Below, piece after piece: positions 21,156-43,547 of a stretch of 64,000 nt of DNA. The stretch covers positions 1,248,001-1,312,000 of the forward strand of contig OZ244170.1 of the NCBI GenBank assembly GCA_965216565.1. The letters run 5' to 3'. The notes beneath the pieces were generated by a model, which ran no database searches, was not told the origin of the DNA, and saw only the letters and a program-made list of their open reading frames with translations. A program made the position numbers and the translations under genes. The DNA comes from Bythopirellula sp. (GTDB taxonomy: Bacteria > Planctomycetota > Planctomycetia > Pirellulales > Lacipirellulaceae). Numbering within the stretch: the stretch's first letter is position 1; every line of letters begins with the position of its first letter.

Positions 21156-21248
21156 TCCCACTTTCAATGAAATCGTATTCGACTTGTACTTCGCATTCCA
21201 CTTTTGTTTCTTTTCTGTTTTCGTTGCTTTTGCAATAGAGGAGTTCTA

Positions 21249-21974
21249 ATGATGAGAGTTCTTAGTAGATGCCTTCTTGGCGCTGCAGCTGTGGCTGTAG
21301 TCTTGTTTAGTTGTGGTGAAGTTGAAGCCGCGCTTGCATACTCCTTCGAACCCGACCTGGAAGGGTTCGGACCAAATGGTGGCGGAATTTCTGTCACTCA
21401 AGACACAATTGGAGCGACGGACGGCTCCAATTCGATGAAGGTCGATATCGTAACTGGTCCGACCTTTGTTGGTGCTCTAACAGGAAATGTTTCCCCTGTG
21501 ATTGGCGATCCTCCTGGAATCGGAAGACTTCTCTTCGATATGACGATCGACGCAGGTGACGAGCACACAGGGGCTTTCGCTGTTGTCGGTGTCACCATTT
21601 TCGGCGCATCCCAACCCGATCCAAATGGAGTGTCAACCTTCGGTTTGCAAGCTCAGTTCGCTGACTTTGAGAATATCGGTGGCAAGGCTGCAGGAACTTA
21701 CACGGTTGCTATTGACCTCGACTCGGCTACGCATCCCACCACGTTCGCAACGGGCCAGTCGTTCAATGACATTTTTGGCACCCTTGGAAGCGGTCCGGAT
21801 GACGTGATCCCGACTGGCGTACAACTGTTCTTTAATCAGTCGGCAGATGCTCCTGTTACGGTATATATCGACAATATCCGTGCAGTGATTCCTGAACCGG
21901 CTACTGCTCTGTTGTTCGGATTTGGAGTAGTCGCAGCCGGCGTGGTGCGCCGCCGTACTCCTGCTTGTCAGTAA
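21249..21974 (+). CDS. PEP-CTERM surface protein, paralog of 20247-21155 lacking the dockerin-like module
   Basis: GAGGAG RBS; signal peptide; shared blocks AYSFE, VTQDTIGATDG, TFVGALT, QSFNDIFG, YIDNIR; IPEP-TM-RRR. Confidence 0.85.
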   Translation: MMRVLSRCLLGAAAVAVVLFSCGEVEAALAYSFEPDLEGFGPNGGGISVTQDTIGATDGSNSMKVDIVTGPTFVGALTGNVSPVIGDPPGIGRLLFDMTIDAGDEHTGAFAVVGVTIFGASQPDPNGVSTFGLQAQFADFENIGGKAAGTYTVAIDLDSATHPTTFATGQSFNDIFGTLGSGPDDVIPTGVQLFFNQSADAPVTVYIDNIRAVIPEPATALLFGFGVVAAGVVRRRTPACQ

Positions 21975-22907: not shown

Positions 22908-24164
22908 ATGACTCTCCATTTTCGCCCTTGGCGATCACTACTGAAAACAACAGATACTAAACCTGGCAAGGGTTCTCGCGTAGCTAGCCTTCTTCAAAGG
23001 CAATCAAAATCTAGTGCTGGACCTCTTGCTGCCTATGTTGGCACATTTGGTTCCGGTCCTCTCGCTGAGCAGGCAACACAATCGAACCTTCCTTGCGGCA
23101 TACAAGTGTTTCATGCAGATCGCACCAGCGGCGAGTTATCGTCAGCTGGTGTGTTTGAAATGAGTACAAGTCCAAGCTTTCTGGTCACCAATAAGCATGG
23201 GACGCGTCTGTATTCTGCCAACGAGACGGATAGTCTTGGAAGTAGCGGAACAGGATCCGTTAGTGCATTCGCAATTGGGCGAGCTTACGGTGAACTTTCC
23301 TTACTCAATACGGTGTCATCAGGAGGAACTGGGCCAACGCATGTAAGCATACATCCGACAGGTCGGTTTTTGTTTGTTGCAAATTATTCTAATGGCTCTG
23401 TGGCTGTGATCAATATTATGCCGGATGGTTCGCTAGGAGAGATTTTGGATCTCAAGTACAACGAAGTAACGAGAGTGAATGGTGACAGCAACACAATTGC
23501 ATCTGCAGACTTCGAAAGTAACGAGACTTGTCGATCGCACGCGCATATGATTCAAGCAGACTCCACAGGCCGAGTTGTAATCCATGTTGACCTGGGGTCG
23601 GATAAATTGTTTACATGGAAATTCGATGAACAAACCGGATTGTTGACACCAAACGATCCTCCCTTTGTGTCTCTGCCGTCTGGAGTTTCACCAAGACATT
23701 TCTGCTTTCATCCGAATGGACATTGGCTCTATTCAATTCAGGAGGAAGCTTCTTCGGTGACTTTGTTCGAATACTGCACTCAAACAGGTGCGTTAGCAAT
23801 TCGCCAAACGAACTCTACTCTGCCTTCGGAGTACGTGGGTAGCAACTACTGCTCCTCAATTCTTGTTTCGGCTGACGGTAGATTTCTCTACGCGGGAAAC
23901 AGGCTGTACGATTCGATTGCCATTTTCGCAATCGGACAGAGAGGCGAACTCACACGAATTGGTGAAGAATGGGCGAGGGGGAACTATCCGCGTAGCTTCA
24001 ATTTCGATCCTACAGGCAAGTTTCTCTACTGTTGTAATCAGCGTAGCAACAATATTTCTCTGTTCTACGTAGATCGGAACTCTGGGAACCTGAGCTTCAG
24101 TGGCCATTACACCGCAGTAGAGAATCCGGCCGCTATCGAGTTTCTTGACTTATGTGAAGATTGA
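22908..24164 (+). CDS. Lactonase family (6-phosphogluconolactonase/cycloisomerase-2) beta-propeller
   Basis: AYVGT, VANY, SHAH, DLGSD, SPRH, YPRSF; start uncertain. Confidence 0.88.
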   Translation: MTLHFRPWRSLLKTTDTKPGKGSRVASLLQRQSKSSAGPLAAYVGTFGSGPLAEQATQSNLPCGIQVFHADRTSGELSSAGVFEMSTSPSFLVTNKHGTRLYSANETDSLGSSGTGSVSAFAIGRAYGELSLLNTVSSGGTGPTHVSIHPTGRFLFVANYSNGSVAVINIMPDGSLGEILDLKYNEVTRVNGDSNTIASADFESNETCRSHAHMIQADSTGRVVIHVDLGSDKLFTWKFDEQTGLLTPNDPPFVSLPSGVSPRHFCFHPNGHWLYSIQEEASSVTLFEYCTQTGALAIRQTNSTLPSEYVGSNYCSSILVSADGRFLYAGNRLYDSIAIFAIGQRGELTRIGEEWARGNYPRSFNFDPTGKFLYCCNQRSNNISLFYVDRNSGNLSFSGHYTAVENPAAIEFLDLCED

Positions 24165-24385
24165 GGACCACCGCTTTACGTTGACGGTTCTGGATTTATC
24201 GAGGTTTGCAACGATTGGAATCCTCCAGACTTCTGTTCTGCTGTCTTGTTACACGTGTGGTTATCCTTTCTGTTTGCGCTCGCTTCGTGCTGCCTGCATA
24301 TGTATAGACTTAGCCCACTAGTAATTCAATTTCGCAATTGCAAGAATGCATGACGGATCTGGCACCACGTCGAATGGAACCCAGT

Positions 24386-24913
24386 ATGAAACCCGAACCC
24401 CCTCAAAACCCAATCGGACCTTTCACTCCTGCTGTAGATTTCGGACCAGAATACCGAAGTCGATGTATCAACGACCTATCTGCCCTTCCAGGGCAACTGC
24501 GCGAAGCGGTAAGTGAGCTTTCGGGGCAGGAGCTCAACACGAAGTATCGCAATTGGACAATTCGACAAATAGTACACCACATTGCTGATAGTCACGTGAA
24601 TAGTTATGTGCGGTTCAAATGGGCACTTACCGAAGACTCACCCATTATCAAAGCCTATGATGAAGGCCTTTGGTCTCAGCTGACTGAGTCGGCAACGGGA
24701 GACATTGTTCCATCGCTGCAACTACTCGACGGACTCCACGCACGTTGGGTTCAGTTGCTCAACAGCATGAGCGACACAGATTTCGGCCGCACGTTCCTTC
24801 ATTCCGAATCTGGTGAGACCATAGCACTTAATTCTGCACTAGACTACTATCCATGGCACGGCAAGCACCACACAGGACAGATACTGTGGCTGCGTGAGGC
24901 TTACGGTCTCTAA
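24386..24913 (+). CDS. YfiT/DinB-family metal-dependent thiol transferase/hydrolase
   Basis: WTIRQIVHHIADSH, IKAYDE, LHARW, WHGKHH. Confidence 0.88.
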   Translation: MKPEPPQNPIGPFTPAVDFGPEYRSRCINDLSALPGQLREAVSELSGQELNTKYRNWTIRQIVHHIADSHVNSYVRFKWALTEDSPIIKAYDEGLWSQLTESATGDIVPSLQLLDGLHARWVQLLNSMSDTDFGRTFLHSESGETIALNSALDYYPWHGKHHTGQILWLREAYGL

Positions 24914-25067
24914 CTAGTATCGGGTTGATACTGCGAACAGCTTGCTGAATGGTCGGTAGATCGAGTGGACTCTGCGACTGTATTCTTCTGGTCTTCGAAA
25001 AGAGAGGTCATCTCTCGGACTGGGCCAGCAAGGCAGAAGTGGCTACCTCAAGGAGAAATTCCTCTGC

Positions 25068-26069
25068 GTGTTTAGCCCGCTTGTCGATCGGATGCTAGAG
25101 GCTGCAAACCTAGAAGTGTTAGCCGTCACCGGTGCACAGGCTCCCGACTTTGCACCAGGGGTTATACTGAAAAGACTTGGCACTCGACACGACGAATGGT
25201 TGATGCCCGAGCAAATGGATGCTTCCGGTGAGATCCTCTTTTCGGGTGTTGGGAGAGGACAGGGCGTTGAAGCCCATCGTCATGGAAAGACAGTATGGAC
25301 GGCTGACGCGATGGGGGTCTTACGTGTCATTGCGAATAGGCTACCTGTTCCCTCATTTCGAAAGACTTGGATCAGTAGCATCGGTGGTGTACAGCGATTA
25401 GGCCCCAAACTGTATTTATGCGTTGCGGCGATGGACGGTCGCGATGTCCTTTTCGACGATCGCGTGGGGCTTTTCTTGGTACGCGACGGTCATCTCAACC
25501 TGATTATGCAAAATGCGAAGAGGGCACCTGCAGGGTCAAGTTCCAAGAATCTGATCAAGTCGATTGAGGGTATTATGACGTATCAGGGAGGGGCAGTCGT
25601 CTACACAGAAACCATCGACGCGGGGCAAATCGGTGGGGCGGTGTGGCGACTTACCGGCCAAGATTGGTCCATCCTAACGCACGACACGGCTACAGTAACC
25701 GGCTTGTCTAAGTTCCCTTCTTTTTCAAAGTGTGATATTCAGAGCACCAACTCCAAAGGGGACATTGTCCTCCGAGTACTAGGTCGAGAATCAGCCGAAT
25801 CGAACCAGCTGCCAGTAGGAGTTGTGACCTCCTCGGTCAAAGGAGTACTGAATACTATTGCCGCTACGGGTGACAATGCCGAGATTCCAGATGATCAAGA
25901 CGCGGTATTTGATGGGAACTTGAATCAGTACGATGCCGGCATCAATGATGCTGGCAACGTAGCGTTCTCAGGGTCTGCCGCAGATAAGGCAGGCATTCGG
26001 AAGCATACGAGTGAAAGCTTGCAGTTCCTCGGAGCAATCGAATCGCCGATCGATGTGTTCATTGACTGA
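25068..26069 (+). CDS. Hypothetical protein with NxxGxxAF-type repeat remnants (possibly truncated)
   Basis: TGAQAPDFAPGV, TNSKGDIV, INDAGNVAF; no signal peptide or C-terminal anchor. Confidence 0.4.
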   Translation: MFSPLVDRMLEAANLEVLAVTGAQAPDFAPGVILKRLGTRHDEWLMPEQMDASGEILFSGVGRGQGVEAHRHGKTVWTADAMGVLRVIANRLPVPSFRKTWISSIGGVQRLGPKLYLCVAAMDGRDVLFDDRVGLFLVRDGHLNLIMQNAKRAPAGSSSKNLIKSIEGIMTYQGGAVVYTETIDAGQIGGAVWRLTGQDWSILTHDTATVTGLSKFPSFSKCDIQSTNSKGDIVLRVLGRESAESNQLPVGVVTSSVKGVLNTIAATGDNAEIPDDQDAVFDGNLNQYDAGINDAGNVAFSGSAADKAGIRKHTSESLQFLGAIESPIDVFID

Positions 26070-26167
26070 ATTCCGGAGAACGGCAGTACGCGCCGGCAAT
26101 TCAGCCGGAGCACACACAAACCGCCGGATGCATTTCGCCCCTTATCTGTGGCTACTAGGCATTGAAG

Positions 26168-27403
26168 CTATTGCTCAGGTTGGATTTGTTCGGCCTTGGC
26201 CAGGGAAAACGCCTCACAGGCAAGCACTTCGACAAAGCCCTGACTGCTTTGTGGATTGAGACCATCGCTGGCTTCCATCGATGCATCTGCCGGGTTGTAG
26301 AGTGAGGCTGGGCAATCGGTCAGCGATTGGAAGTAAATGTTGCCGCGATACAGACCTGCTTTCACGGTGCCGGTGGCGTGTTTCGCTAAAAGGTCGATTC
26401 CGGCAAGCGCGGCCTGGGCTCCTGGATCATAAAGTCTTGCATCGTAGATCTGCTCCGCGACGAGTCGCGACATCTGATGAAACAGTCCGGTCGCGCGTCG
26501 ATCCATGGTTGCTTGATAAACAAACTGTAGGCACATACCCAATAACTCGAGCCCAGGGGCTTCATAGACACCGCGACTTTTGGTGCCAATGATGCGGTTC
26601 TCAAGCGCGTTACTCAGTCCGATACCGTTTCTACCGGCGATTTCGTTGGCCTGCATCATGGCTTCCAGTGGTGCGACGTCGATCCCATTGATCGAACTGC
26701 AGCGTCCTTGCTCGAATCGGATGGTCACGTCCTCGATGGAATCGGGAGCGTCGTGCGGCCAAACGCACATGGTGGGTTCAACAATTAAACAGGAAGTTTC
26801 TAGACTCTCCAAATCCTCGGCTTCGTGACTTAGCCCAGCGAGATTGGCATCCGTCGAGTAGCGTTTTTGCACTACCTCTGCTTCGATTCCCATATCGCGC
26901 AGGTAAGCCGCCATTTGTTTGCGTCCTGGGAATTCTTCCAGCAGAGTTGGATCTCGCCAGGGAGCATAAACTTTCATGTCCGGTGCCAGCACATTGCTGT
27001 AGCGCTCAAATCGAATCTGATCGTTACCGCGACCTGTCGCTCCATGGACGAGCACCGTGCAACCATGCTTGCGCATACTTTCGATCAAGCCCTTCACCGT
27101 AATCGCTCGCGCGATGCCGGTGGTATTCCAATAGCCACCGTCGTACTTCGCCTGCGAACGTAGCATCATGAAACAGGCTTCGGCCATTTCGGCTTTGAGG
27201 TCGACGATGATCGTCTCAGCGCCCGTTGGCTGCATCTTCTTTCGGACGTCTTCAATATCTTCTTCGTCAGGTTGTCCGAGATCTGCCGTAAAGCAGGTGA
27301 CATCACAACCGGCTTCCATAAGCCGCTTAGTCACCGCCTTGCTATCGAGTCCCCCTGAAACACAAATCCCGAGTTTGTGCCCTGTTAATTCACCTAGTCT
27401 CAT
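26168..27403 (-). CDS. argG: Argininosuccinate synthase
   Basis: SGGLDS PP-loop, HGATGRGNDQIRF, STDANLAGLSHE, ENRIIGTKSRGVYEAPG. Confidence 0.93.
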   Translation of the reverse strand: MRLGELTGHKLGICVSGGLDSKAVTKRLMEAGCDVTCFTADLGQPDEEDIEDVRKKMQPTGAETIIVDLKAEMAEACFMMLRSQAKYDGGYWNTTGIARAITVKGLIESMRKHGCTVLVHGATGRGNDQIRFERYSNVLAPDMKVYAPWRDPTLLEEFPGRKQMAAYLRDMGIEAEVVQKRYSTDANLAGLSHEAEDLESLETSCLIVEPTMCVWPHDAPDSIEDVTIRFEQGRCSSINGIDVAPLEAMMQANEIAGRNGIGLSNALENRIIGTKSRGVYEAPGLELLGMCLQFVYQATMDRRATGLFHQMSRLVAEQIYDARLYDPGAQAALAGIDLLAKHATGTVKAGLYRGNIYFQSLTDCPASLYNPADASMEASDGLNPQSSQGFVEVLACEAFSLAKAEQIQPEQ

Positions 27404-27458
27404 GGCTGCTTTCTAAGAATCAAAGAATACACGTTTTAAAAGATACTACGGCCAGCGC

Positions 27459-28655
27459 TCAGAGCGATTCAACGAACTCCGAATCGTGTGCCACATCCGC
27501 ACTATTGTAGCGTGTAGTGAGGCTTCGCATAACTCCATCAAAAACTGCCAAGCCCGTCGAAAGGACATCGTCGGGAAAGCTGTATTCAGGGTGATGCAGC
27601 CCCATGGCCGTTTCACCAATCCCCAAGCCGAAATGGAGCGTCGGGCAGACTCGCGAGAAATGCGAAAAATCTTCGGACCAACGAAAAGCAGATTGTAGTT
27701 CCTGATACTGGATGTGCAGTTCACCGCAACAGTGTTCGAGCAATTCCACTAGTGAAGGATCGTTTTGGCTGGCAGGAAACCACTCTGCTTTGGCAATTTC
27801 GAGGTCGAGTCCATCGCTTACCGCCGCGTTTCGCACTAACGTTTCGAGTTGCTCGAACAGCATATTGAGAGTCGCTGTGGAAGCCGAACGAAGTGTTGCC
27901 AACAAGGTGGCATTGCCGGGAGTCAATCCGAACGATTCGCCACCCATTTGCACATGAGTCACGGATGCCAGGCGATAGGGATCAGCCTCGACATCACTTA
28001 AACCAGGAATCGCGGTAAGCAGTTGTGCCAGAACATTTCGGGGAGACCTTGCTTCCTCCGGTTCTGCAGCATGAGAATCAATGCCGCGCAGTAAAATGCG
28101 CACTCCACCAGAAGCGCTGGCAAAGGTGCCCGGCCTGCAAACAATGGTATTGAGAGCGAAGCCAGGAAGGTTATGCAACGCTATCGCGTAGTCGGGCTGT
28201 ATGGATGGGAACTGGGGATCGTCGAGGATCCGCAATGCTCCCTCCCCAGTCTCCTCGGCGGGTTGAAAAAGTAATACCACTCGGCCTGAGGCTGGTCGCT
28301 TGCAATGGAGCAAAGGGGCTAACCCCGCCAAGATGGCCATGTGGCCATCGTGTCCGCAGCGATGAGAAGCTTGCTCCGCAAAAGTGGCGGTGCCTTCGGC
28401 GTTTGTTATTGACAGCGCATCCAACTCACTCCGGAACAACAGCGTGGGTCCCTCTTCGTTGCCTTCGAAAACCGCTGCAACCCCATGCCCGCCAAGATTG
28501 GTAAGCAGCGAGTCGGGAGCGTAAGCAAGCAGAAAGTTTGCAATAATCCGCGCGGTAACCACTTCTTGGCCGGCTGGCTCAGCGCACACATGCAAAGTAC
28601 TGCGGAGCGTTCTAAGAATCTCGAGAAGAATAGAATCATTAAGGACGGGCGTCAT
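27459..28655 (-). CDS. M20D-family amidohydrolase
   Basis: RSELDAL, HRCGHDGHM, FQPAEETG, HNLPG, SEDF, LHHPEY. Confidence 0.9.
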   Translation of the reverse strand: MTPVLNDSILLEILRTLRSTLHVCAEPAGQEVVTARIIANFLLAYAPDSLLTNLGGHGVAAVFEGNEEGPTLLFRSELDALSITNAEGTATFAEQASHRCGHDGHMAILAGLAPLLHCKRPASGRVVLLFQPAEETGEGALRILDDPQFPSIQPDYAIALHNLPGFALNTIVCRPGTFASASGGVRILLRGIDSHAAEPEEARSPRNVLAQLLTAIPGLSDVEADPYRLASVTHVQMGGESFGLTPGNATLLATLRSASTATLNMLFEQLETLVRNAAVSDGLDLEIAKAEWFPASQNDPSLVELLEHCCGELHIQYQELQSAFRWSEDFSHFSRVCPTLHFGLGIGETAMGLHHPEYSFPDDVLSTGLAVFDGVMRSLTTRYNSADVAHDSEFVESL

Positions 28656-28708
28656 ACCTTAATTATAGTTCTCTCTGGGGAAATTTCCGAGAATATACCC
28701 CTGCAAGT

Positions 28709-30055
28709 TTAGATTTCTTGGGAGGCCCCGGTTGCAGGAGCTGGACTCTTGCCTTGTAACAGTGCTCCTACCTCTCCTGCCAAGAGAAGCAAGGCAACCA
28801 AATTGGGAATGACGACGAAAGCGTTCAGCAAATCTGCCAAGGCCCAAGTGGCTCGCACCCCGGCCAGAGCTCCACCCGTGATTGCGATGCAGTAAAGTAT
28901 CCGATAGGGCACCTTAGCTCGCGGTCCAAATAGATAGGCAGCACAAGTCTCGCCGTAGAACGCCCATGCAATCAACGTCGACAAGCCGAATAGAACCGAT
29001 GCGATCATCACAGTTGGCGCACCAAGGGGACCAAGTGCTTGTCCCATCGCGTGTGCGGTCAACGCCGCTGAATCGAGTCCAGACTGCCAGGCGCCAGTTA
29101 GTAGTAGTACGAATCCGGTAGCTGTAGCCACAACTAGCGTGTCAATGAACACGCCCAACATCGCGATCTTGCCTTGCGAGATCGGATCGCTCGTTTGAGC
29201 TGAGGCGTGCGCAATCGGCACCGAGCCCGTTCCAGCTTCGTTGGAGTAGACGCCGCGCGCTAAACCGAATCGCATTGCTTGCTGAACGGTCGCACCCAAG
29301 AAACCCCCAGCCCCGGCTGCTGGAGTAAAGGCATGTTCGAACACCAGGCCAAACACTTCGGGAATCCTTGCAGCATAAAGGGCAATGGCAGAACCCGCAG
29401 CAATTAAGTAGATCGCCCCCATCAATGGAGTTAGGATTTCCGAAACTCGCCCAATCGAGTGAACACCTCCCAATATCACGAACGCCGCCACCAGGGCGAC
29501 TAACGAGCAAGTGACAATAGGAGCCCAGCCCAGTTCAGATTGAACCACGGATGCAATCGAGTTGCTCTGCACCGTGGTAGTTGCGACAAGGGTTTTTACT
29601 GCCATAACAAACGCAAAAAAACCAGCTACCTTTGGCCAGCCAAGTCGAGTCTCGAGATAGTACATCGGTCCCCCGGCGTAGAATCCATCCTCTGCTCTAC
29701 GCCGATACCGAACCCCCAGGACCGATTCTGCAAACATGGTTGCCATCCCGACAACGCCAGAAACCCACATCCAGAATAAGGCCCCCGGTCCACCCGCCAT
29801 GATCGCCGTCGCGACACCCGCAATATTCCCATTTCCGACGACTCCCCCGACCGCCGTCATCAGTGCTGCAAAGGAGGAAACGTCTCCTTCCCCCGTTGAG
29901 GCCCGACTTTTCATCACGGCTCGGCAAGCTGGAACAAAGCCCCATACTTGGACAAAGCGATTCTTGAACCCCACGTAGAGACCGACGCCCAGCACCAAGC
30001 TAAGCATCGGCACACCCCAGAGCCATCCACTGGCCGCATCAATCCATGATGTCAT
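28709..30055 (-). CDS. Alanine/glycine:cation symporter (AGCS) family transporter
   Basis: GNGNIAGVA, GGPGALFWMW, GGPMYY, RGVYSNEAGTGS, FIDT. Confidence 0.92.
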   Translation of the reverse strand: MTSWIDAASGWLWGVPMLSLVLGVGLYVGFKNRFVQVWGFVPACRAVMKSRASTGEGDVSSFAALMTAVGGVVGNGNIAGVATAIMAGGPGALFWMWVSGVVGMATMFAESVLGVRYRRRAEDGFYAGGPMYYLETRLGWPKVAGFFAFVMAVKTLVATTTVQSNSIASVVQSELGWAPIVTCSLVALVAAFVILGGVHSIGRVSEILTPLMGAIYLIAAGSAIALYAARIPEVFGLVFEHAFTPAAGAGGFLGATVQQAMRFGLARGVYSNEAGTGSVPIAHASAQTSDPISQGKIAMLGVFIDTLVVATATGFVLLLTGAWQSGLDSAALTAHAMGQALGPLGAPTVMIASVLFGLSTLIAWAFYGETCAAYLFGPRAKVPYRILYCIAITGGALAGVRATWALADLLNAFVVIPNLVALLLLAGEVGALLQGKSPAPATGASQEI

Positions 30056-31535
30056 TGTGAGACTCGATATGGGCGTCGTCTTGCGTTCGATAATCAGCTT
30101 TGTCGAGCTTATGCGATTTCATTTTTCTCAACAGAGTCCGCCGACTGATACCAGCAATTTTTGCAGCCTCTGCCATGAGTCCTTGCGTTTCTTCAAGACA
30201 CCTTTCCAGGTACGCTTGTTCCACGGCCGCCAAGTTTTCTTGAAGCGACTTGGTGGTCTTTACGATTTCATCCAAACCGTTTTGTGGGCTTGGGTGGCGG
30301 ACTCGAACGGCGGGTTTCGGCACATCTCCCCGAAGATTCTGATCTGGAACTAGTTCTTCAAAATCGCTCTTGTTAACACGTTCGCCGCAGTGAGTAAGCA
30401 CCAGTCGCTCAGAAAAGTTTTGCAATTGGCGCACGTTGCCCGGCCAGTGGTAAGCGACCAGAGCATCGAGGAAATCCTCAGTCAAATCGGGACGAGTGAC
30501 GTTGTAGTCCTCAGCCAGCTTACGTGAAAAATGAGCGAAAAGAAACACGATGTCTTCCGGTCGATCCCGCAGCGGAGGTAACTCGAGTCGCATGACATCG
30601 AGCCTGTAGAATAAATCCTCTCGGAATTTGCCGCTTTGCACATGGCTTTCCAAAGCATCGCTAGTTGCTGCTATTACCCGTACATCGACCTTAATCTCTT
30701 CGTGCCCACCAACAGGCCTGACGGCTTCTTCTTGCAAAGCACGCAGCAAATGGTACTGCACGGCGAGCGGTATATTTCCGATCTCATCAAGGAATAAAGT
30801 CCCTCCGTCGGCGTGGCGAAATAGTCCTAGCTTGTCCTTAGTCGCGCCTGTAAATGTACCTTCGACATGGCCGAAAAGTTCAGAGTTGATAAGTGATTCG
30901 TCGATCGCGCCACAGTTTAGCGGGACGAAACGTCCACTCCGTCCCGAGTGTTTGTGTATGGCACGAGCAAGTAGCTCTTTACCGGTACCCGTTTCGCCCA
31001 AGATGAGGACAGTTGCTTCGGAGGTAGAGACTCGCGTTGCGGTGTCGAATAGATCCCACATTGTTTGACTGCGCGAGTACATTCCCTCGAATTCATTGCG
31101 GTCGCTTGTTTGCTCGCCCAATAAGGCAGCCCGTGGCAGGAGTTGCTGAGCATGGACCAACTTGACAACTTCTCTAGCACACGTGGCCACAGAATTGGTC
31201 AACAAGACATCCTTTGCCCCAGCATTAAGCAGATCCCGCACCAGGGGACCGCTCGCTTTCGGCAGCCAGACCACCACGTCGACCATCGGCCAGCGATCGC
31301 GCAATTGCGGGATGACTTCGGTGGCGGGCAGTCCTTTCGTCTCATTGGGGCCTATCAAGATTGCCCTGGCCTGCAGGTCCTCCTTGGGACGCAAGATCTG
31401 GCCCAACCGCCGCACGGTCGACGTTGCCATTCCATGTTCACGGAGCGGACGGCTAAGCTCGGAGCAGCCATATAAGATTAAGAGCGGTTTTTCGATGGGT
31501 GGCGTCATAGCGGTCAATTCTGACCCATTTTGCAT
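30039..31535 (-). CDS. Sigma54-dependent enhancer-binding protein (pseudo-receiver + AAA+ + Fis HTH)
   Basis: GETGTGKE, SELFGH, GTFTGA, LFLDEIG, FREDLFYRL, WPGNVRQL, GISRRTLLRKM; start 31535 or 31508. Confidence 0.92.
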   Translation of the reverse strand: MQNGSELTAMTPPIEKPLLILYGCSELSRPLREHGMATSTVRRLGQILRPKEDLQARAILIGPNETKGLPATEVIPQLRDRWPMVDVVVWLPKASGPLVRDLLNAGAKDVLLTNSVATCAREVVKLVHAQQLLPRAALLGEQTSDRNEFEGMYSRSQTMWDLFDTATRVSTSEATVLILGETGTGKELLARAIHKHSGRSGRFVPLNCGAIDESLINSELFGHVEGTFTGATKDKLGLFRHADGGTLFLDEIGNIPLAVQYHLLRALQEEAVRPVGGHEEIKVDVRVIAATSDALESHVQSGKFREDLFYRLDVMRLELPPLRDRPEDIVFLFAHFSRKLAEDYNVTRPDLTEDFLDALVAYHWPGNVRQLQNFSERLVLTHCGERVNKSDFEELVPDQNLRGDVPKPAVRVRHPSPQNGLDEIVKTTKSLQENLAAVEQAYLERCLEETQGLMAEAAKIAGISRRTLLRKMKSHKLDKADYRTQDDAHIESHNDIMD

Positions 31536-31548
31536 TGCGGGTCAATAA

Positions 31549-31567
31549 TGTCTCACGCAATGAGACA
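31549..31567. promoter_or_regulatory. Inverted repeat TGTCTCA-N5-TGAGACA, candidate enhancer (UAS)
   Basis: Perfect 7-bp arms ~55-70 bp upstream of the -24 element; further dyads TGACCC/GGGTCA (31521-31544) and GACAC/GTGTC (31564-31575). Confidence 0.55.
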
Positions 31568-31619
31568 CTTGTGTCACCTTCCTTCGTGGAGTTCATTTGA
31601 AATCCGCAGTTTCTCTAAA

Positions 31620-31635
31620 CGGCATAGGCTTTGCA
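31620..31635 (+). promoter_or_regulatory. Sigma54 (-24/-12) promoter CGGCATAGGCTTTGCA for the argB operon
   Basis: GG 31621-22, N10, GC 31633-34; TTGCA -12 box; divergent from a bEBP gene. Confidence 0.8.
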
Positions 31636-31863
31636 TTATGGCACCGGCAATAGGAGTCTAGCAATCCATTCTTGGCCTACGTCGGAAAGGAATCCCCAAT
31701 GAAAGACATCTTAAACATAAAACAAGATTAACAATGTTTACTGTCTGAGAGATTACCCAAGGCCGACAAGCAGAGGCACTCCGGTCGCCTACTCGCTCAG
31801 CCTTTTATTGTAATTGTCATCACTACAACCGTACTATCACTGAATCGAAACAAGAGATTACAC

Positions 31864-32622
31864 ATGAACACACAACAGATCCAACTGTTAAAGGTTGGTG
31901 GCGCACTGCTCAATGATACTGATTACTTGGAGCGTCTTGGCAGGCACATACAAACGTTAGTGGATGCCAGCAAACGAGTAGTCCTAGTACACGGTGGAGG
32001 CAAGGAAATTGCTTCCCTTCACGATCGACTTAAGGTCCCCCATCGAAAGGAATTGGGACTGCGCGTTACCTCAGACGCCAGTATGGATCTGGTAACGAAA
32101 GTGCTTTGTGGGCTGGTTAACAAACGCCTAGTAGCTCACTTCAATCGAGCCGGCGTACGATCATTGGGAATTTGTGGCGCCGATCAAGGAGTGATGCATG
32201 CAGAATTCCTCAACCAGGCTCAGCTAGGCCGGGTTGGTGGGCCACCTACTGTTGAGGTAGATGAGATACAATCGCTACTCTTGACGACTCAGGTTTTAGT
32301 GGTCTCTCCCGTGTGCCTCGGGCCAGATGGTGCGTTGCTGAATGTCAATGCCGATCTGGTGGCTCAATCGATGGCAGTCGCTCTCAATACCGAATGCCTC
32401 GATTTTGTTACCGACGTCGATGGTGTGCAAACGGCGGAAGGCACAGCGCGATCGTTAGTTCCCGATCAAATCGAGGAGATGATTCAAAACTCGATTGTTG
32501 AAGGCGGGATGATTCCCAAGCTACAAGCAAGTATTGCCGCACTCGGTGGCGGTGTATCCAAGGTCCGAGTAGGAAACTTGGAGAGCCTAAGCCAAGGGTT
32601 GGCAACGGAGGTGGCGGCTTGA
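31864..32622 (+). CDS. argB: Acetylglutamate kinase (amino-acid kinase family)
   Basis: KVGG, VHGGGKEI, GLRVT, NVNAD, TDVDGV, GGMIPKL. Confidence 0.88.
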   Translation: MNTQQIQLLKVGGALLNDTDYLERLGRHIQTLVDASKRVVLVHGGGKEIASLHDRLKVPHRKELGLRVTSDASMDLVTKVLCGLVNKRLVAHFNRAGVRSLGICGADQGVMHAEFLNQAQLGRVGGPPTVEVDEIQSLLLTTQVLVVSPVCLGPDGALLNVNADLVAQSMAVALNTECLDFVTDVDGVQTAEGTARSLVPDQIEEMIQNSIVEGGMIPKLQASIAALGGGVSKVRVGNLESLSQGLATEVAA

Positions 32623-33188
32623 AAACTGTAGATTCCAACATCTGCTCTAAGATGATATCGCACAACAGCAGGGTCTTTGAAAATCAAGTAGCTAGTAGCA
32701 GTTCCGATGAAACTGCAGCAGTTGACTATGAACTTCAAGCCGCCGAGTTTCAGGATATTCAGTCGCTAATCCAATTATCGAGCGTCAATGTTCCTCACTT
32801 GGCATTAACCACCGTCTGGGGAATTCCTTGGACTTGGAAACATTACACCGTCGCCAAGGACCAATCAGGCAGGCTGCTGGGGGCTGGATCTCTCCTGCCG
32901 CTCGATAATTGTTTGGCTGAGATTCGCGGCTTGGTGGTCGAAAAGTGTCACCGTGATGCCGGGATAGCCTCCAAAATAGTTGAACACATGCTGAGACGAG
33001 CCCGCGTGCTGGAAATGAACGCAGTATGCGTGACACGCAAGCCGAGCTTCTTCCGTAAGTTTGGCTTTCAAGAAACGAATCCCGCTTGGCTCGAAATTCA
33101 ACAGCACCCCAAGCTGAGACGTGGCATTCTCGAAGATTCAGTTTCCCAACCTTTGGCACCACGCATTGCGATGGCCCTAGCCGGGTAG
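32619..33188 (+). CDS. GNAT N-acetyltransferase (short ArgA-like)
   Basis: LAEIRGLVV, RDAGIASKIV, FFRKFGF; TTGA overlap with argB. Confidence 0.75.
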   Translation: MKTVDSNICSKMISHNSRVFENQVASSSSDETAAVDYELQAAEFQDIQSLIQLSSVNVPHLALTTVWGIPWTWKHYTVAKDQSGRLLGAGSLLPLDNCLAEIRGLVVEKCHRDAGIASKIVEHMLRRARVLEMNAVCVTRKPSFFRKFGFQETNPAWLEIQQHPKLRRGILEDSVSQPLAPRIAMALAG

Positions 33189-33286
33189 CTGAAAGGCTTA
33201 CTATTGCAAAGCCAATCATGAAGTCATCACCAGCTAAACAGCCGATTAACAATAAGAACCATTCTTATGGGAGAGAAGGAATAAAT

Positions 33287-33853
33287 ATGAGTACAGCCAC
33301 GATGACAACCACTCGCCGACGGAAGCGTCGAACGAAAGAACAGTTTAAAGTCGTCCCAGCTCGCTGGGAGGATATGAAAAAAGTGGCCAACTTCCTGCGG
33401 TCGACTGCGCACTGGTATCAACCTATCGTCGAGCAGAAAGATATGTCGGAGCACGCAGTCGACAACCAATGGGCTGCAAAAAACTTCCAGCGGAGAGATT
33501 TTTATCTGGGTGTTGTAGAAGGTGAAGCAATCGGGACTATTTCACTGCAATACTTTAACAAGATGGCTTACGTTGGATATATCTATCTTGATGCAGAACA
33601 TGTCGGAAATGGTTATGGTCAGAAACTCATGAAATTCGCTGAGTCTAAAGCACAAAGCAAAGGCATGAAGGGACTCGCACTCTTGGCACATCCCGAGGCC
33701 ACTTGGGCCAAACGTGCTTACTTAAAGTATGGTTTCGAGATCGTGGCTTCCGACAAGGCAGACGTGCTAGCCTGGCAAAACGGCGTCCTGAAACCTTACT
33801 ACGAAGAGGACTTCGAACTCTACCACTTCGATTTCCCCACTGGCCAACGATAG
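33287..33853 (+). CDS. GNAT N-acetyltransferase
   Basis: AAGGA RBS before ATG 33287; motif A VGNGYGQKLM, AYLKYGF. Confidence 0.85.
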   Translation: MSTATMTTTRRRKRRTKEQFKVVPARWEDMKKVANFLRSTAHWYQPIVEQKDMSEHAVDNQWAAKNFQRRDFYLGVVEGEAIGTISLQYFNKMAYVGYIYLDAEHVGNGYGQKLMKFAESKAQSKGMKGLALLAHPEATWAKRAYLKYGFEIVASDKADVLAWQNGVLKPYYEEDFELYHFDFPTGQR

Positions 33854-33985
33854 CCGAACGGCTTCTACGTTGATCCTCTAGACTGCGGGAATGCAGTTGT
33901 ACTAACTCACCTCGGCTCGACGGGTCCGATTCTTTAATGGCCACCGTCGGGTTGTGTCATCCAATAACCACACGAGGCAATCCTG

Positions 33986-35245
33986 ATGTCGAATAACAAA
34001 CAAAATTTGAAAGGAAAAGTTGCTTTACTTGGCTATTGCGTACCAGCCATGGAAGCTTTGGATAAACTTGGACGCCCCTTCGTTTCGGTCGTGCCCCCCG
34101 ACTTCGAGTCTACGATGGAAGAGGCCGATCTCCCTTACGTCTTATGGGAATTCGGCACTGTCAACGAAAAGTCGATGAGCTTAGCGAAAACGCTAGGCGA
34201 TATGGGCGTGACGGTCGCGGTCCCACTCTTCGAAGAAACCGTAGAATGGGCCGGAGCACTGAATGGGCACTTCCGCGAAGATCGTCGACTCTTCACCAAG
34301 TATCTTTTGTTCCGCGACAAAGCGATGATGAAACGCAGGGCTCAAATGAGTGGTATCCGCGTTGGAGTTTTCGAAGAGGCAGAAAGCAAGGAAGACGTAC
34401 ACAGATTCTTCAAACGCGTGAACAAGGCACTCGCCAAAATCGACGGAGATGTTGAAGACCCTGTACATCTCAAACCGTTAGCTGCTGCTGGATGTGTGGG
34501 GCACTGCTTCATACGCTCCGTGGAGGACATCGAAAAACTCACGCACGAAAATTTTCCATGTCTACTTGAAACACATTTGGATGGCCAGGAGTTCTCCTGC
34601 GAGGTCTTCATCCATAACAGGAAAATCCGGTTTCTAAACATCAACGAGTATGTACACTTGGGGCATTCCAACTTTAGTCCTGCCTCGCCAAAACTCGACG
34701 CGTCTCGTGAACTAATCGAAAAAGCAGTTTATGAATTAATCGAGGCCTTCGACATCCAGTACGGAATGATTCATCCAGAGTTTTTCATCACGCCCGACGG
34801 CAAGATCAACTTTGGCGAGGTCGCAGCACGCGTGCCGGGTGGTCACATTTTTGAGTTAATACACAAAGCCTATGGATTCGATCCTTTTGCAGGATTCGTC
34901 TTGTGTGCAGATCCAGAAACATCGGAAGAAGAACTCAACGACTTCTTCCCAGACCCCGCTGACCATCAAGGCTACTCAGGTTGTTTGATGGTTTATCCCA
35001 AGCAGAAGGTCGTCACACGGGTCGCCCTGCCTGAGAAGCTACTGGCTGAGCCTTACTACGAGAAACACAATCTGTTCCAGCCTGTGAATGCAAAAGTTGC
35101 TGAACGGGCCGGGTTCGGCGATCACTACGGGACGGTCTACTTCCAAGGCGATGACGCCGAAGAAATGACCCGCCTGCTGCTCGACTACGAACAAGCAGAA
35201 TTCTACACCAATGACGAAGCTCGCGTTCCCGTGGAACAGGCGTAA
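33986..35245 (+). CDS. ATP-grasp carboxylate-amine (amide/peptide) ligase
   Basis: RDKAMMK, HLKP, LLETHLDGQEFSCE, IHPEFF, FGEVAARVPGG; GAGG RBS. Confidence 0.88.
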   Translation: MSNNKQNLKGKVALLGYCVPAMEALDKLGRPFVSVVPPDFESTMEEADLPYVLWEFGTVNEKSMSLAKTLGDMGVTVAVPLFEETVEWAGALNGHFREDRRLFTKYLLFRDKAMMKRRAQMSGIRVGVFEEAESKEDVHRFFKRVNKALAKIDGDVEDPVHLKPLAAAGCVGHCFIRSVEDIEKLTHENFPCLLETHLDGQEFSCEVFIHNRKIRFLNINEYVHLGHSNFSPASPKLDASRELIEKAVYELIEAFDIQYGMIHPEFFITPDGKINFGEVAARVPGGHIFELIHKAYGFDPFAGFVLCADPETSEEELNDFFPDPADHQGYSGCLMVYPKQKVVTRVALPEKLLAEPYYEKHNLFQPVNAKVAERAGFGDHYGTVYFQGDDAEEMTRLLLDYEQAEFYTNDEARVPVEQA

Positions 35246-35258
35246 TCGAGGAGAATCC

Positions 35259-37256
35259 ATGCCAACGACAGAACTAGCAGGAGCCAAAATCGACGTCGTC
35301 CAACGGCTTGCCGCAAAGCTCGATACTGCCCTGGAAGAACTTACCGCTGCCAAGCCGTACGCAAAGAGTACGTATCAAACCAATGTGTTTCAAATTGCAG
35401 AGACGCTGATGGGTTCCGACGAAGGGCACAAAGCGCTACTCGCACGAGCACATCAGTTCGACCAAGCTGGAGTTTTCGAGGGTGGCCCCTGGGAAGACCC
35501 TACCAAGCTACAACCACCACTGGTTGCTGGTAGTTTGAAAGCCGCTGGAGTCTATCCTGTGGTCGAAACGCTCAGTGAACTGCGGATGCTTGCTATTGCT
35601 CGAGGTAACGGAAACGAACAGTCGAAAGTCTCTCAGCAAGAGGCAACTGACTTTCTCAACGAAGTGATGGCTCTGAATCTGGAATTCATTTTTCCGGCGG
35701 ATACAGAAGAGGAGCGGATCATGGGGGGGCCTCATCGCGACTCGAATCTTCGTCTCTTTGCGCTCATCGCGGAAGAATTGGGCATGGGCTCGCTGTTGGG
35801 CGATGTGGTCACGGAAATCGAACAGATCTGTGCTCAGCGTCCCATCATGACACGACGCGTGCGACGAATGATCGAAATGGCGTCTCGTATTCCCGACGAG
35901 CAATCGAGCCCCGAGATTTCCCAACGTCTGCAAGGATTTACTAAGGCGGTCAATCATCCCAGCCCCCTCAGTCGCGAGCATCCTGAACTCACCGCTTACA
36001 GAAAAGTTGTGCAAGAGTGTGATTACGCCACACTCGAGTCCGAAGCACGTGCGTTTGCGGTGACGTTGACACTCACGGGTCTCACCTCGCCACACCATGC
36101 AGTCCTGCTGCGATGCCTTCGAGCAAAAGAACCCGACTTGATTGGAACAGCGCTCGCGCTGAATGACTTGGGCGAAGCGGAGCTAGGACAGAATCTGGAA
36201 TTCGTCCAGCAGTTGATTCGCATTTGCATTCTGCCCGCGACGGCACAGAGCATCTACGGCTTCGCCAGAATCCTGGAACTGGGGTTATTATCGCGACAGG
36301 AAGTGTCGGCAGGCTTGCGACGCCTTATCGACCTGGATCTTCAATCGGATGTTCGGCGAAATCTGTTGGCTCAGCGACAGGTGCGTGACGGGGTAACGGC
36401 CAATGTTCTTTTGCTAGCCGGAGTCATTAGTGTTTTGGGACAGCCGTTAGGAGTGGGACAAGGAAAAAACCCCACCTGCCAATCAGCCCGTGCAATAAGC
36501 CTCTGGGCGCAACATGCGCACGGTTATCTTTTGGAGCTACTTGTATCAGCCGCTCGCGACGGCGTCATCGAAGTGGATTTCGAAGGAGAAGCTCTCCGCA
36601 CCGATAATCTAAGCGGAGGCGTGGCAACCCAAATAGACTTCGATCTCGATCCGGTATCGATCGTGCTCGTGCCCCATCTCGATGTTCTTTACTCGGCAAT
36701 GATGAAACGCGTTTCGCTTCGTCAAGAAGACGGGCATAAGTGGGTCAATCCCGCGTTCTACGGACGCTGGGTGTCCAGCGGTTTCGCAACGGTGTTTTCA
36801 GCCCTAAATCAAAAAGTCATCTCAGATTACGATGATTTTATTCGGAGATTCTATGCGACACACCATCCCGCGTACAACGAGGGGCATGCCATGATGTACC
36901 CCAGTCCGGTGGGCATATTGGTAACGAATGGTCACGGTGAGTATCTGGGGCCACATGCAATTTCTCTGCAACGCGTCTCGCAAGACAACGATGGCAAACT
37001 TCGTGCCTACTTTTACAATCCTAATAACGAGGGACGTCAGAATTGGGGGCGAGGGGTCGAACCAACCATCAACAGCCATGGTGAGCTAGAGGGTGAATCC
37101 TCACTGCCATTCCATGAATTCGCTACAAGGCTTTACGCGTTTCACTACAACCCGTACGAGGAGGGAGACGCGTACGCAGTACCAGCAGAAGAGATCCAAG
37201 AAATTGAGGAAGCCGCGAAAGCGACCTGGGGCAAAGCTTTCACGTGGTTGAGTTAA
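35259..37256 (+). CDS. Hypothetical protein: helical N-terminus + putative papain/calpain-like cysteine-peptidase domain
   Basis: GAGGAG RBS; GQGKNPTCQS, HAISL, YFYNPNN; ORF certain, function inferred. Confidence 0.7.
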   Translation: MPTTELAGAKIDVVQRLAAKLDTALEELTAAKPYAKSTYQTNVFQIAETLMGSDEGHKALLARAHQFDQAGVFEGGPWEDPTKLQPPLVAGSLKAAGVYPVVETLSELRMLAIARGNGNEQSKVSQQEATDFLNEVMALNLEFIFPADTEEERIMGGPHRDSNLRLFALIAEELGMGSLLGDVVTEIEQICAQRPIMTRRVRRMIEMASRIPDEQSSPEISQRLQGFTKAVNHPSPLSREHPELTAYRKVVQECDYATLESEARAFAVTLTLTGLTSPHHAVLLRCLRAKEPDLIGTALALNDLGEAELGQNLEFVQQLIRICILPATAQSIYGFARILELGLLSRQEVSAGLRRLIDLDLQSDVRRNLLAQRQVRDGVTANVLLLAGVISVLGQPLGVGQGKNPTCQSARAISLWAQHAHGYLLELLVSAARDGVIEVDFEGEALRTDNLSGGVATQIDFDLDPVSIVLVPHLDVLYSAMMKRVSLRQEDGHKWVNPAFYGRWVSSGFATVFSALNQKVISDYDDFIRRFYATHHPAYNEGHAMMYPSPVGILVTNGHGEYLGPHAISLQRVSQDNDGKLRAYFYNPNNEGRQNWGRGVEPTINSHGELEGESSLPFHEFATRLYAFHYNPYEEGDAYAVPAEEIQEIEEAAKATWGKAFTWLS

Positions 37257-37292
37257 TTCAATCGTATTCAGAGCTTGTCCCACAACCGAAAA

Positions 37293-37332
37293 CCCCCTCC
37301 CCTAACCCCTCCCCCGCAGACGGAGGAGAGGG
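37293..37332 (+). repeat. C-rich/G-rich imperfect hairpin resembling a REP-like element
   Basis: CCCCCTCCCCTAACCCCTCCCCCGCAGACGGAGGAGAGGG in an intergenic gap; single copy in the window. Confidence 0.4.
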
Positions 37333-37364
37333 ATTTGGGATAGACACCGGTACACACGACTATC

Positions 37365-38543
37365 ATGAGTTTTGCTTTACCAACTCGACTGAAGGCAATC
37401 GAACCTTCGCAGATTCGTGAAAACATGCGAATCGCCCAAGAGGTTGGGGCGATCAACCTTGCGCAAGGAAGACCCGACTTTAGCACCGCTACGGAAATCA
37501 CGCAGGCCGCGATCGCAGCAATTAAGGCGGGGCACAATCAATACTCAGTGACGTGGGGAATTGAGGAACTTCGGCAAGCGGTTGTCGCTATGTTGACTCG
37601 TCGATTTGCCCTACAGTTCGATCCCGACACAGAATTGACCATCACTTGCGGAGTCACCGAAGCGATCGTAGCTGCCATGCAGGCTCTCGTTGAACCAGGC
37701 GACGAGGTTATCGTCCTGGAGCCTGCCCACGAGAATTACGTCCCTGCGATTCGGTTCGCCGGGGGTGTCCCGAAGTTCGTCACATTGCGACCTCCACAAT
37801 TTGATCTCGATTTGGAGGAACTAAAACAGACGATCAGCTCCAAGACCCGCGCACTAATTCTTAACACTCCGCACAACCCAAGCGGACGAGTCTTTACGGA
37901 AGAAGAGCTAACCGCGATTCTCAGCTTAACAACGGAGCACGGCATCTACGTCGTCACCGATGAGATTTACGATCAGGTGCTCTATCCACCGCATAAACAT
38001 GTTGCCGTAGCAACCGCTGCGCCTGAGCCGAAGATGATAATCACGACAGGTGGCATCTCCAAAACGTATGCCACGACTGGGTGGCGGCTAGGCTACGTTG
38101 CCGCAGAGCCAGAGGTTTCCAGCGCGATTCGAACCGTGCATGACTACTTAACCATTTGTGCACCGACACCTTTCCAATATGCGGCTTTGGCCGCATATCA
38201 GCTACCAGAAAGCTACTATGTGCAGCTTCGCGAAGATTTTTTAGCCCGCCGTAATTGTATGATGGAAGTTTTAGAGCAGAGCGGCTTCAAACCCTATCAA
38301 CCGCAGGGTGCCTACTATCTGATGGCCAGCTTCGACGCGTGGAAGTTCAGCGGCACGTCGCAAGAATTCTCCCGGCAACTGATCACCGAGGCAGGCGTTG
38401 CGGTCGTGCCGGGTACGGCTTTTTACTACCAAGACAAAGAACTTGGCAACAAGCTCGTTCGTTTTGCATTCGCGAAAAATCTCTCTGTACTCGAGCAAGC
38501 AGGGCAACAACTGGCCCTTCGCCAAAAAGAACTTGGATGTTGA
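37365..38543 (+). CDS. PLP-dependent class I aminotransferase (YbdL/kynurenine-methionine aminotransferase-like)
   Basis: INLAQGRPDF, NTPHNPSG, DEIY, ISKTYATTGWRLGY, VVPGTAF, RFAFAK. Confidence 0.92.
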   Translation: MSFALPTRLKAIEPSQIRENMRIAQEVGAINLAQGRPDFSTATEITQAAIAAIKAGHNQYSVTWGIEELRQAVVAMLTRRFALQFDPDTELTITCGVTEAIVAAMQALVEPGDEVIVLEPAHENYVPAIRFAGGVPKFVTLRPPQFDLDLEELKQTISSKTRALILNTPHNPSGRVFTEEELTAILSLTTEHGIYVVTDEIYDQVLYPPHKHVAVATAAPEPKMIITTGGISKTYATTGWRLGYVAAEPEVSSAIRTVHDYLTICAPTPFQYAALAAYQLPESYYVQLREDFLARRNCMMEVLEQSGFKPYQPQGAYYLMASFDAWKFSGTSQEFSRQLITEAGVAVVPGTAFYYQDKELGNKLVRFAFAKNLSVLEQAGQQLALRQKELGC

Positions 38544-38802: not shown

Positions 38803-38818
38803 CTTCTGTCCCGTCAAG

Positions 38819-38892
38819 TCGGGCCGACAGGATTTGAACCTGCGACCTTTTGACCCCCAGTCAAACGCGCTACCAGACTGCGCCACGGCCCG
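38819..38892 (-). tRNA. tRNA-Pro (anticodon GGG), CCA not encoded
   Basis: Minus strand CGGGCCGTGGCGCAGTCTGGTAGCGCGTTTGACTGGGGGTCAAAAGGTCGCAGGTTCAAATCCTGTCGGCCCGA forms a cloverleaf. Confidence 0.96.
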
Positions 38893-42383: not shown

Positions 42384-43547
42384 TTAGGCTAGAAGTCGCC
42401 GTTGCCGTCTTGCTCGGAAACCTAATCCCAAGGAAGCAAGGCCACACAACAGCAAAATGGGAGCGGCTGGTTCAGGAACATGCTCGATGCCAATGCTGGC
42501 TGTGGCGAGGAAAGGTACGGCGATTATTTGGCTTCCAGGAATAAAAGCCGTAAAAGTGCTCGCCCAAGTACTGCTCTTTAAGATAACCGTGCTTCCAAGT
42601 CGTCCGACATTGTGGACTAGAGTACTGCTTGCCACTCTATGAACAACGCCTGCCGGAAAGTGAATAAAGTGCCCAGTTGCGGGGTCCACGTTACGAGGAA
42701 TAACGTATGCACTTTGGAAATCGTTTTGGCTGGGATTGGCGTTTGGAAATGGGTTATTGCTATTCGCTTGATGTCCGCCTGCAGTGAGATGCAATCCCTC
42801 TAGATCGTTAATCGACGAAGGCACTAACACACGGTGGCTGTTTGCCCATTGCCACGTAGTTGATCCCGGCGTAGGGACGGGTATCGACGTGCTGCCAGGG
42901 CTGGAGGCAAGGTGAATGGTCGTCGTAGCCGTATTGATTCGTGTATAGACAAACGTTGAATTTGGTTGGTGGTAGATGTCGGCGAACTTCAAATTGATAT
43001 CGATGTCGCTGTTGTTGATGGGATTGGTATTCTTAGCGACCAAATCGAGCGTAATTGCGGGAAACGCGCTACTGGGATTCAGGGTGATACCTGAACCAAA
43101 AGCCGCCGGATGAAACACAGGGAAGATCTCAGCGGTGCTACCTGGTGCAGGGCCACCACCTGGGGTTGCTCCCGATAGGGGGAAGGAATGTGGCTGAGGA
43201 ACGCCGCCTACTTTGACTGCAACGATATCGACTTCCGAGGGATCAGCGAGATGAACTTCTACTAAGACGCCAGCCCAATTGGGTAGCGCAAAACCAGAAG
43301 AATTATGCACGTCGATCGGAATCGAAATCGACTGGCCAGCGGACATCTGGGGAGTCTTAATGTCGGTGATCAAACCGCCATTGGGGTCGGGAAGGCCGCC
43401 AGAAGTTGCGCCGAGTGGAGTTGGGGGCGCTCCGCCTGGACCCGTCAAGAATTGGCCAAGAGCGGATTCTAAATCCAATCCACTGAAAGCTAGGAAACAG
43501 ATTGCGGTCAGAGAAACGAAAACGAATCTATGGTACCCGGACTTCAT
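42384..43547 (-). CDS. PEP-CTERM surface protein, Pro/Gly/Ser/Thr-rich, unknown function
   Basis: GGAGG RBS before MKSGY; signal peptide; HVPEP-TM-RARRQRR. Confidence 0.85.
   Translation of the reverse strand: MKSGYHRFVFVSLTAICFLAFSGLDLESALGQFLTGPGGAPPTPLGATSGGLPDPNGGLITDIKTPQMSAGQSISIPIDVHNSSGFALPNWAGVLVEVHLADPSEVDIVAVKVGGVPQPHSFPLSGATPGGGPAPGSTAEIFPVFHPAAFGSGITLNPSSAFPAITLDLVAKNTNPINNSDIDINLKFADIYHQPNSTFVYTRINTATTTIHLASSPGSTSIPVPTPGSTTWQWANSHRVLVPSSINDLEGLHLTAGGHQANSNNPFPNANPSQNDFQSAYVIPRNVDPATGHFIHFPAGVVHRVASSTLVHNVGRLGSTVILKSSTWASTFTAFIPGSQIIAVPFLATASIGIEHVPEPAAPILLLCGLASLGLGFRARRQRRLLA

Follow-up and report, generated by a model that had tools for sequence, protein, structure and literature searches.

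What is made, or taken apart, by the ten-gene cluster at positions 26168-38543 of the window, the 64,000-nucleotide stretch of Bythopirellula sp. contig OZ244170.1 analysed here, in which arginine-pathway genes stand beside an ATP-grasp ligase and a 665-residue papain-like protein? A sequence-only reading had described the cluster as a self-contained divergent unit for the synthesis and turnover of an N-acylated amino-acid amide or short peptide, and had recognised no described pathway in it. We found that the ligase and the 665-residue protein form the widely conserved core. The unit as a whole stands for the window genome and for one other genome, G009, while elsewhere only the pair is widely conserved. 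No described product, family model or pathway description of this pair was found in the literature searched, in agreement with the earlier reading. Our preferred reading, held tentatively and at less than even confidence, is that the pair would make and turn over a short N-acetylated peptide containing ornithine or arginine, which would serve as an osmolyte or as an osmolyte-nitrogen reserve.

The distribution of the two genes supports their treatment as a unit. A profile search with the 665-residue protein gave at least 544 confirmed genome matches, of which the best 80 were used; these span Myxococcota, Planctomycetota, Nitrospirota, Bacilli, Gammaproteobacteria, Actinobacteria and Bacteroidota, and salt-associated names are frequent among them. 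The ligase lies within 10 kb of the 665-residue gene in 60 of the 80 loci; of the other 20, three are cut off by the end of a contig, and in all 17 that were tested the ligase lies elsewhere in the genome. When ligase loci are counted instead (89, after duplicates such as L003 and loci with short flanks were dropped), the two genes are adjacent and in the same orientation in 79. The trees of the two proteins are largely congruent, and their identities are correlated (rho 0.67, 52 pairs). The occurrence within groups varies: of the 61 genomes searched among relatives, 2 have the 665-residue gene, the window genome included; for the ligase the figures are 6 of 301 genomes in the phylum, 10 of 121 in the family of G415 and 31 of 56 in the Halobacillus family. 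The neighbourhood survey proposed with the sequence-only reading returned a pair that is syntenic across phyla, with many salt-associated names, and a left arm of the cluster that is mostly accessory. It was also seen that between Gammaproteobacteria (L107-L113) and Actinobacteria (L139-L147) the ligase is 85-89% identical and the partner 63-67%, and that 1185 sequences of the two groups fall into a single 90% cluster.

According to its structure model (predicted local distance difference test, pLDDT, 88), the first core gene encodes an ATP-grasp enzyme with the fold and domain layout of the L-amino-acid ligases (LAL). The closest structure is RizA (4wd3, E 3.3e-26), and BL00235 (3vot) and BacD/YwfE (3vmm) are also in the top four; the template modelling (TM) scores against LAL structures are 0.69-0.74 on the query, at 15-19% identity. 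The E-x-A-x-R motif is common to the ligase and RizA, and the ATP- and metal-binding residues K112, K163, E195, E265, E278 and R282 are invariant in 80 and in 52 sequences. The score against PF13535, 26.5, is just below the cut-off of 27, and there is no RimK-type structure among the fold matches shown. The enzyme is predicted from the model to form a dipeptide from free amino acids. Its whole-protein fold is thus like that of RizA, BL00235 and BacD/YwfE, while it differs in its tight pairing with a papain-fold enzyme. Two observations concern single ligase loci. At L009:8756-11956 a frameshift lets the ligase run into the frame of its partner, giving a 1066-residue open reading frame (ORF) that is either an assembly error or a pseudogene. 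In two gammaproteobacterial loci (L076:7469-8557 and L114:6358-7374) a Peptidase_Mx zinc metallopeptidase gene directly precedes the ligase.

The second core protein has no Pfam or NCBIfam match, and no Pfam match, Peptidase_C2 included, was obtained for 46 diverse members of its family, which is closed at 291 representatives. Its structure model (pLDDT 94) bears out the earlier description as papain-like: structural matches to the papain clan cover residues 396-630, C407 starts a helix (407-419), and H566 and N587 lie on or beside strands in the model. Together with Q401 these form the catalytic set, and among 98 homologs Q, C and H are conserved in 98 and N in 97. On this model the C-terminal domain is papain-like, of clan CA, and the protein is predicted to act as a hydrolase or transferase. 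Its nearest relative in the clan is less distinct, since the Foldseek match to the calpain core (probability 0.9-0.95, E above 0.05) is tied with C39, staphopain and the phytochelatin synthase Alr0975, and hhalign to one bacterial C2 member gives E 0.3. From these clan CA families, calpain C2 among them, the 665-residue family differs by a helical N-terminal part of 390 residues. The 573-residue protein P0381 carries the same papain-fold domain behind a different N-terminal region, which argues that the domain is mobile. A tandem shorter paralog of 603-653 residues with intact catalytic residues is found in the Bacilli loci L023, L024, L028, L032, L037, L043 and L048 (about 12200-14600), and many halophiles have an orphan paralog of the 665-residue protein elsewhere in the genome.

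The two genes are listed below with the other features of the cluster. Family calls were made with Pfam and NCBIfam profiles at curated cut-offs.

26168..27403, minus strand: argG, foreign-type argininosuccinate synthase (TIGR00032, above cut-off)
27459..28655, minus strand: M20D amidohydrolase, likely an N-acetyl deacetylase for recycling (TIGR01891, above cut-off; metal motifs)
28709..30055, minus strand: AGCS sodium:amino-acid symporter, accessory (TIGR00835, PF01235)
30039..31535, minus strand: sigma54 enhancer-binding activator (PF00158, HTH_8)
31549..31567: perfect inverted repeat TGTCTCA-n5-TGAGACA, candidate activator-binding site, read from the sequence
31620..31635, plus strand: sigma54 -24/-12 promoter, GG-N10-GC, CGGCATAGGCTTTGCA
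31864..32622, plus strand: second copy of argB (acetylglutamate kinase), without the N-terminal helix and predicted to be arginine-insensitive (TIGR00761, above cut-off)
32619..33188, plus strand: GNAT1, short and ArgA-like, likely a glutamate N-acetyltransferase (PF00583)
33287..33853, plus strand: GNAT2, of a small ligase-linked family, likely acetylating a basic amino acid (PF00583)
33986..35245, plus strand: core gene 1, ATP-grasp enzyme of L-amino-acid-ligase fold, 419 residues (structure model, motifs)
35259..37256, plus strand: core gene 2, 665-residue protein with a helical N-terminal part of about 390 residues and a papain/calpain-fold domain (structure model)
37289..37336: dispersed intergenic repeat of 48 bp between the 665-residue gene and the aminotransferase gene (9 genome matches)
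37365..38543, plus strand: class I pyridoxal-phosphate (PLP) aminotransferase, accessory (PF00155)
38818..38892, minus strand: tRNA-Pro(GGG) flanking the cluster

All ten ORFs are intact and divergently arranged, and the layout and family assignments of the sequence-only reading were confirmed by the ORFs and profile matches. The argG, amidohydrolase, AGCS, argB, Sigma54_activat, GNAT (both) and class I aminotransferase calls are above the curated cut-offs; for the aminotransferase, every NCBIfam model shown scores below its cut-off. The -24/-12 promoter was found as earlier described, with the activator gene adjacent, so that both marks of a sigma54-dependent operon are present and control of the operon by sigma54 and the activator is predicted. 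The strict -24/-12 pattern has 24 matches on both strands of the 5.2-Mb genome. Three of the 24 fall in the window, the other two at 54786 and 62814 on the plus strand. Of 14 loci with an activator gene, 7 have a looser pattern between this gene and the operon; the background is 0-2 matches on the same strand per whole locus of 6-22 kb. In locus L083 the position of the site is aligned. The inverted repeat, partly conserved in L083, may be the binding site of the activator. The activator is present in 14 of the 16 GNAT2 loci; it carries GTFTGA, a variant of the GAFTGA found in 11 of the 13 homologs listed, and a Pfam scan of its N-terminal region gave no receiver-model match and no Response_reg.

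Around the pair, the genes that might tell what it works on are of several kinds. Four mutually unrelated types of GNAT were found near the ligase: in the 89 loci, GNAT2 occurs in 16, an AblB-type GNAT in 11 (Bacilli; the single member scanned exceeds the cut-off of TIGR03827), and a third type, which we take to be YjbC-like, in 10, while the fourth occurs in L115 and L116, together with a gene of the histone deacetylase (HDAC) family. GNAT2, with 106 homologs, directly precedes the ligase in 4 of 4 matches from the order to which G378 belongs (73 genomes). GNAT1, which has weak matches to PRK07757 and PRK07922 below cut-off, is accompanied by GNAT2 in 9 of 9 loci and by argB, argC or argJ in 8 of the 9. 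Over the 16 GNAT2 loci, the neighbours are GNAT1 (9), argC (6), argG (5), argB (4), M20 (4), argJ (3), a PLP enzyme (3), AGCS (2) and argD (1), so the left arm is mostly accessory. In L010 a single run comprises argC, argB, argD, GNAT1, argJ, GNAT2, the ligase and the 665-residue protein. For deacetylation, M20D genes occur in 4 loci and HDAC-family genes in 6 at threshold, plus L069, L115 and L116, and no locus has both; the best named model for the window M20D is the deacetylase DoeB2, below cut-off. Where accessory genes exist, they are swapped by function between lineages. Besides these, ectC lies near the pair in L035 and L069. In the Nitrospirales loci L045, L047, L049 and L050 the pair is followed by a conserved ORF of 90-110 residues without family, an SDF symporter and an argG of a different type.

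The arginine genes of the window genome were also compared. Native argB/D/F, argC/J and argH are located elsewhere in the genome. In the cluster argB, KVGG stands at residue 10 and the N-terminal helix of the native argB (C1:17639) is missing, and ArgB without this helix escapes arginine inhibition. The cluster argG scores 323.6 against TIGR00032 (cut-off 268.2), has the ATP and substrate motifs, and is the single tblastn match in the genome; an ArgG query of the genus type matches only this gene, at 39% identity. With PF00764, the two cluster-bearing genomes give E 1e-35 and 1e-33, while full-length matches elsewhere give 1e-51 or better. In G012 and G008 the argG block lies between genes that are separated by only 598 bp here (G000:C1:2585656-2586254), and neither the window genome nor G009 has an argG other than the acquired one. 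A sole ArgG of foreign type together with a collapsed native locus indicates that the acquired gene displaced the native one (xenologous displacement). As the only argininosuccinate synthase of the genome it has a housekeeping role, and its displacement of the native gene would help to fix the cluster.

How could these genes act together? We infer every chemical step from the genes, folds, catalytic residues, promoter motif, co-inheritance and neighbours. GNAT1 and the ArgB copy that lacks the helix would, together with native argC/D/J/F/H, drive glutamate to ornithine past feedback control, and ArgG would carry this supply on to arginine. GNAT2 would then acetylate a basic amino acid, most likely giving N-delta-acetylornithine, which the ligase would couple through an acyl-phosphate to a second amino acid. 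The 665-residue enzyme would cleave the peptide or extend it by transpeptidation, while recycling would involve removal of the acetyl group by M20D, and substrate would be imported by AGCS. The synthesis and turnover of an N-acetylated peptide is supported by the folds, the co-inheritance and the repeated recruitment of acetyltransferases and deacetylases; the ten genes, however, do not form a single conserved pathway.

The logic of ligase, acetyltransferase and peptidase is already known from N-acetylglutaminylglutamine amide (NAGGN; asnO-ngg) and from hmrA-ldmS; it is the present enzyme families and their combination that are unclassified. NAGGN, a neutral acetylated peptide, is defined by the amidotransferase AsnO and the fused GNAT-ligase Ngg, neither of which is among the ten cluster genes. 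The cluster has no asparagine-synthetase-like amidotransferase, its GNAT is unfused, and it has ornithine or arginine in place of glutamine supply. NAGGN belongs to a class of dipeptide solutes (PMC1224877), and hmrA-ldmS, listed among the closest systems, is a known operon of ligase and amidohydrolase (PMC9486568). The AblA/AblB (YodP/KamA) pathway to N-epsilon-acetyl-beta-lysine (PMC9049628) is represented near the pair by the AblB-type GNAT of the 11 Bacilli loci, while the window GNATs have no TIGR03827 match. AblA (TIGR03820) is above cut-off in 1 of 5 genomes with the AblB-type GNAT (H. halophilus is not among them by name), which makes beta-lysine an unlikely substrate there.

Acetylation converts ornithine and lysine to zwitterionic solutes (PMC9049628), and Halobacillus halophilus makes both N-delta-acetylornithine and N-epsilon-acetyllysine, the N-delta-acetyltransferase being called unidentified in a 2013 review (PMC4187189). 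In clustering at 90%, the ligase and partner of locus L040, from H. alkaliphilus, fall together with CCG46218 and CCG46217 of H. halophilus. In L040 a potassium channel gene is followed, in this order, by thioredoxin, M42 peptidase, a 72-residue ORF, AblB-type GNAT, ligase and partner. Hbhal_3837 and Hbhal_3881 are named potassium channels (PMC4187189), and the L040 GNAT is four genes from the channel along the direction of accession numbers, the same spacing as from Hbhal_3877 to Hbhal_3881. Provided that this order is kept, that the small ORF has been annotated and that Hbhal_3881 is the channel in question, the AblB-type GNAT before the pair is likely Hbhal_3877. One could go further and suppose a reversible osmolyte bank, in which the ligase and a phytochelatin-synthase-like transpeptidase would join N-delta-acetylornithine (from GNAT2 here, from Hbhal_3877 in Halobacillus) into a peptide polymer that is osmotically silent, and from which it would be set free when the salt concentration rises; we regard this extension as unlikely.

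Several points weigh against an N-acetylated ornithine or arginine peptide as osmolyte. The loci are related and were mostly fetched through one of the two core genes, so that the counts above are not independent. The salt link is based on organism names, and ectC is present in 23 of 51 pair-bearing genomes, hence ectoine is not required. In 9 of 9 actinobacterial loci (L139-L147), as in most loci, neither a GNAT nor an arg gene was recognised near the pair. GNAT2 has no detectable relation to AblB (E 0.3), which makes its regiochemistry a guess, and M20D enzymes mostly cut N-alpha-acyl groups. The argG genes near GNAT2, in 5 of 16 loci and of two origins, point to arginine, as does the nearest structure, RizA, an arginine ligase. 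Finally, Hbhal_3877 was proposed, from the genome alone, as a lysine acetyltransferase (PMC4187189), and N-delta-acetylornithine was known as of 2008 only from aerobic Firmicutes (PMC2329653).

Other explanations must be compared with these points in mind. Cyanophycin also combines ATP-grasp synthesis, a dedicated degrading enzyme and arginine supply. Its synthetase CphA has an ATP-grasp and a Mur domain, and CphB, which degrades it, is a serine hydrolase, whereas the cluster has a single 419-residue LAL-type enzyme without Mur domain and a putative cysteine hydrolase; neither CphA nor CphB has a match among the ten genes. A salt-independent nitrogen store of this kind, with an Arg-X dipeptide made by the ligase and polymerised or depolymerised by the papain-fold enzyme, would leave acetylation incidental or regulatory, and we consider it doubtful given the repeated recruitment of GNATs and deacetylases and the dominance of salt-associated names. 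The product might also be a dipeptide that acts, as mangotoxin and phaseolotoxin do, against arginine biosynthesis, the arg copies then conferring self-resistance. Such an antimetabolite would agree with the displaced native argG and the patchy spread among relatives, and peptides of this kind are built by ATP-grasp ligases (PMC13725569). Family scans showed no warhead-forming oxidase or exporter in the cluster, the arg genes differ between loci as supply genes would, and the pair is alone in most genomes, so this explanation is very improbable.

The sequence-only reading had also offered reversible peptide tagging, where the ligase would add an amino-acid tag to proteins and the calpain-like enzyme remove it. 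The stronger conservation of the ligase than of its partner between Actinobacteria and Gammaproteobacteria would suit such a role, as would the large helical domain of the partner, which has no assigned role. The LAL-like fold, with no RimK-type row among those shown, and the lack of a conserved substrate gene in the loci read speak otherwise, and protein tagging is less favoured, indeed improbable, since the recurrent neighbours are genes of small-molecule supply and recycling. Some other small amide might instead be involved, in a protecting-group cycle or in the recovery of acetylated amines or of peptides with D-amino acids; the arg genes would then be passengers. Three observations agree with it: in L044, L046 and L078 the pair has genes resembling alanine and ornithine racemases beside it, HDAC-family genes also lie near orphan paralogs of the 665-residue protein, and argG has a housekeeping role. 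The argB duplicate without regulatory helix, first behind the promoter, fits added flux instead, and we give this explanation little weight.

As for the borders of the cluster, runs X5 and X6 contain near-identical DNA that extends over most of it rightwards from about 26060 and over little leftwards, which fits its left edge. A contig of run X3, possibly the window's own source, is identical to the window over 23000-37323. The 48-bp repeat breaks contigs and is outside the function of the cluster. The tRNA-Pro(GGG) is a possible old insertion site, and no duplicated 3' end of it was found near the cluster. Left of argG, the ORF at 25068-26069 (DUF7453, NxxGxxAF repeat) has partial profile coverage and looks truncated, and three ORFs in 19968-21974 and 42384-43592 seem, by eye, to have PEP-CTERM-like tails (VPEP/IPEP, hydrophobic part and basic end).

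The 665-residue protein adds an unclassified family to the papain clan, and the cluster is a probable case of acquired genes fixed by the replacement of a housekeeping gene, argG. Cultured, tractable halophiles (Halobacillus, Planococcus, Halomonas, Marinobacter, Methylotuvimicrobium) commonly carry the pair, as do actinomycetes, and the window version suggests candidate substrates through its supply genes. It also makes the identity of the enzyme that forms N-delta-acetylornithine directly testable. If the osmolyte bank were true, there would be a new storage polymer across many phyla, and the missing ornithine N-delta-acetyltransferase would be named.

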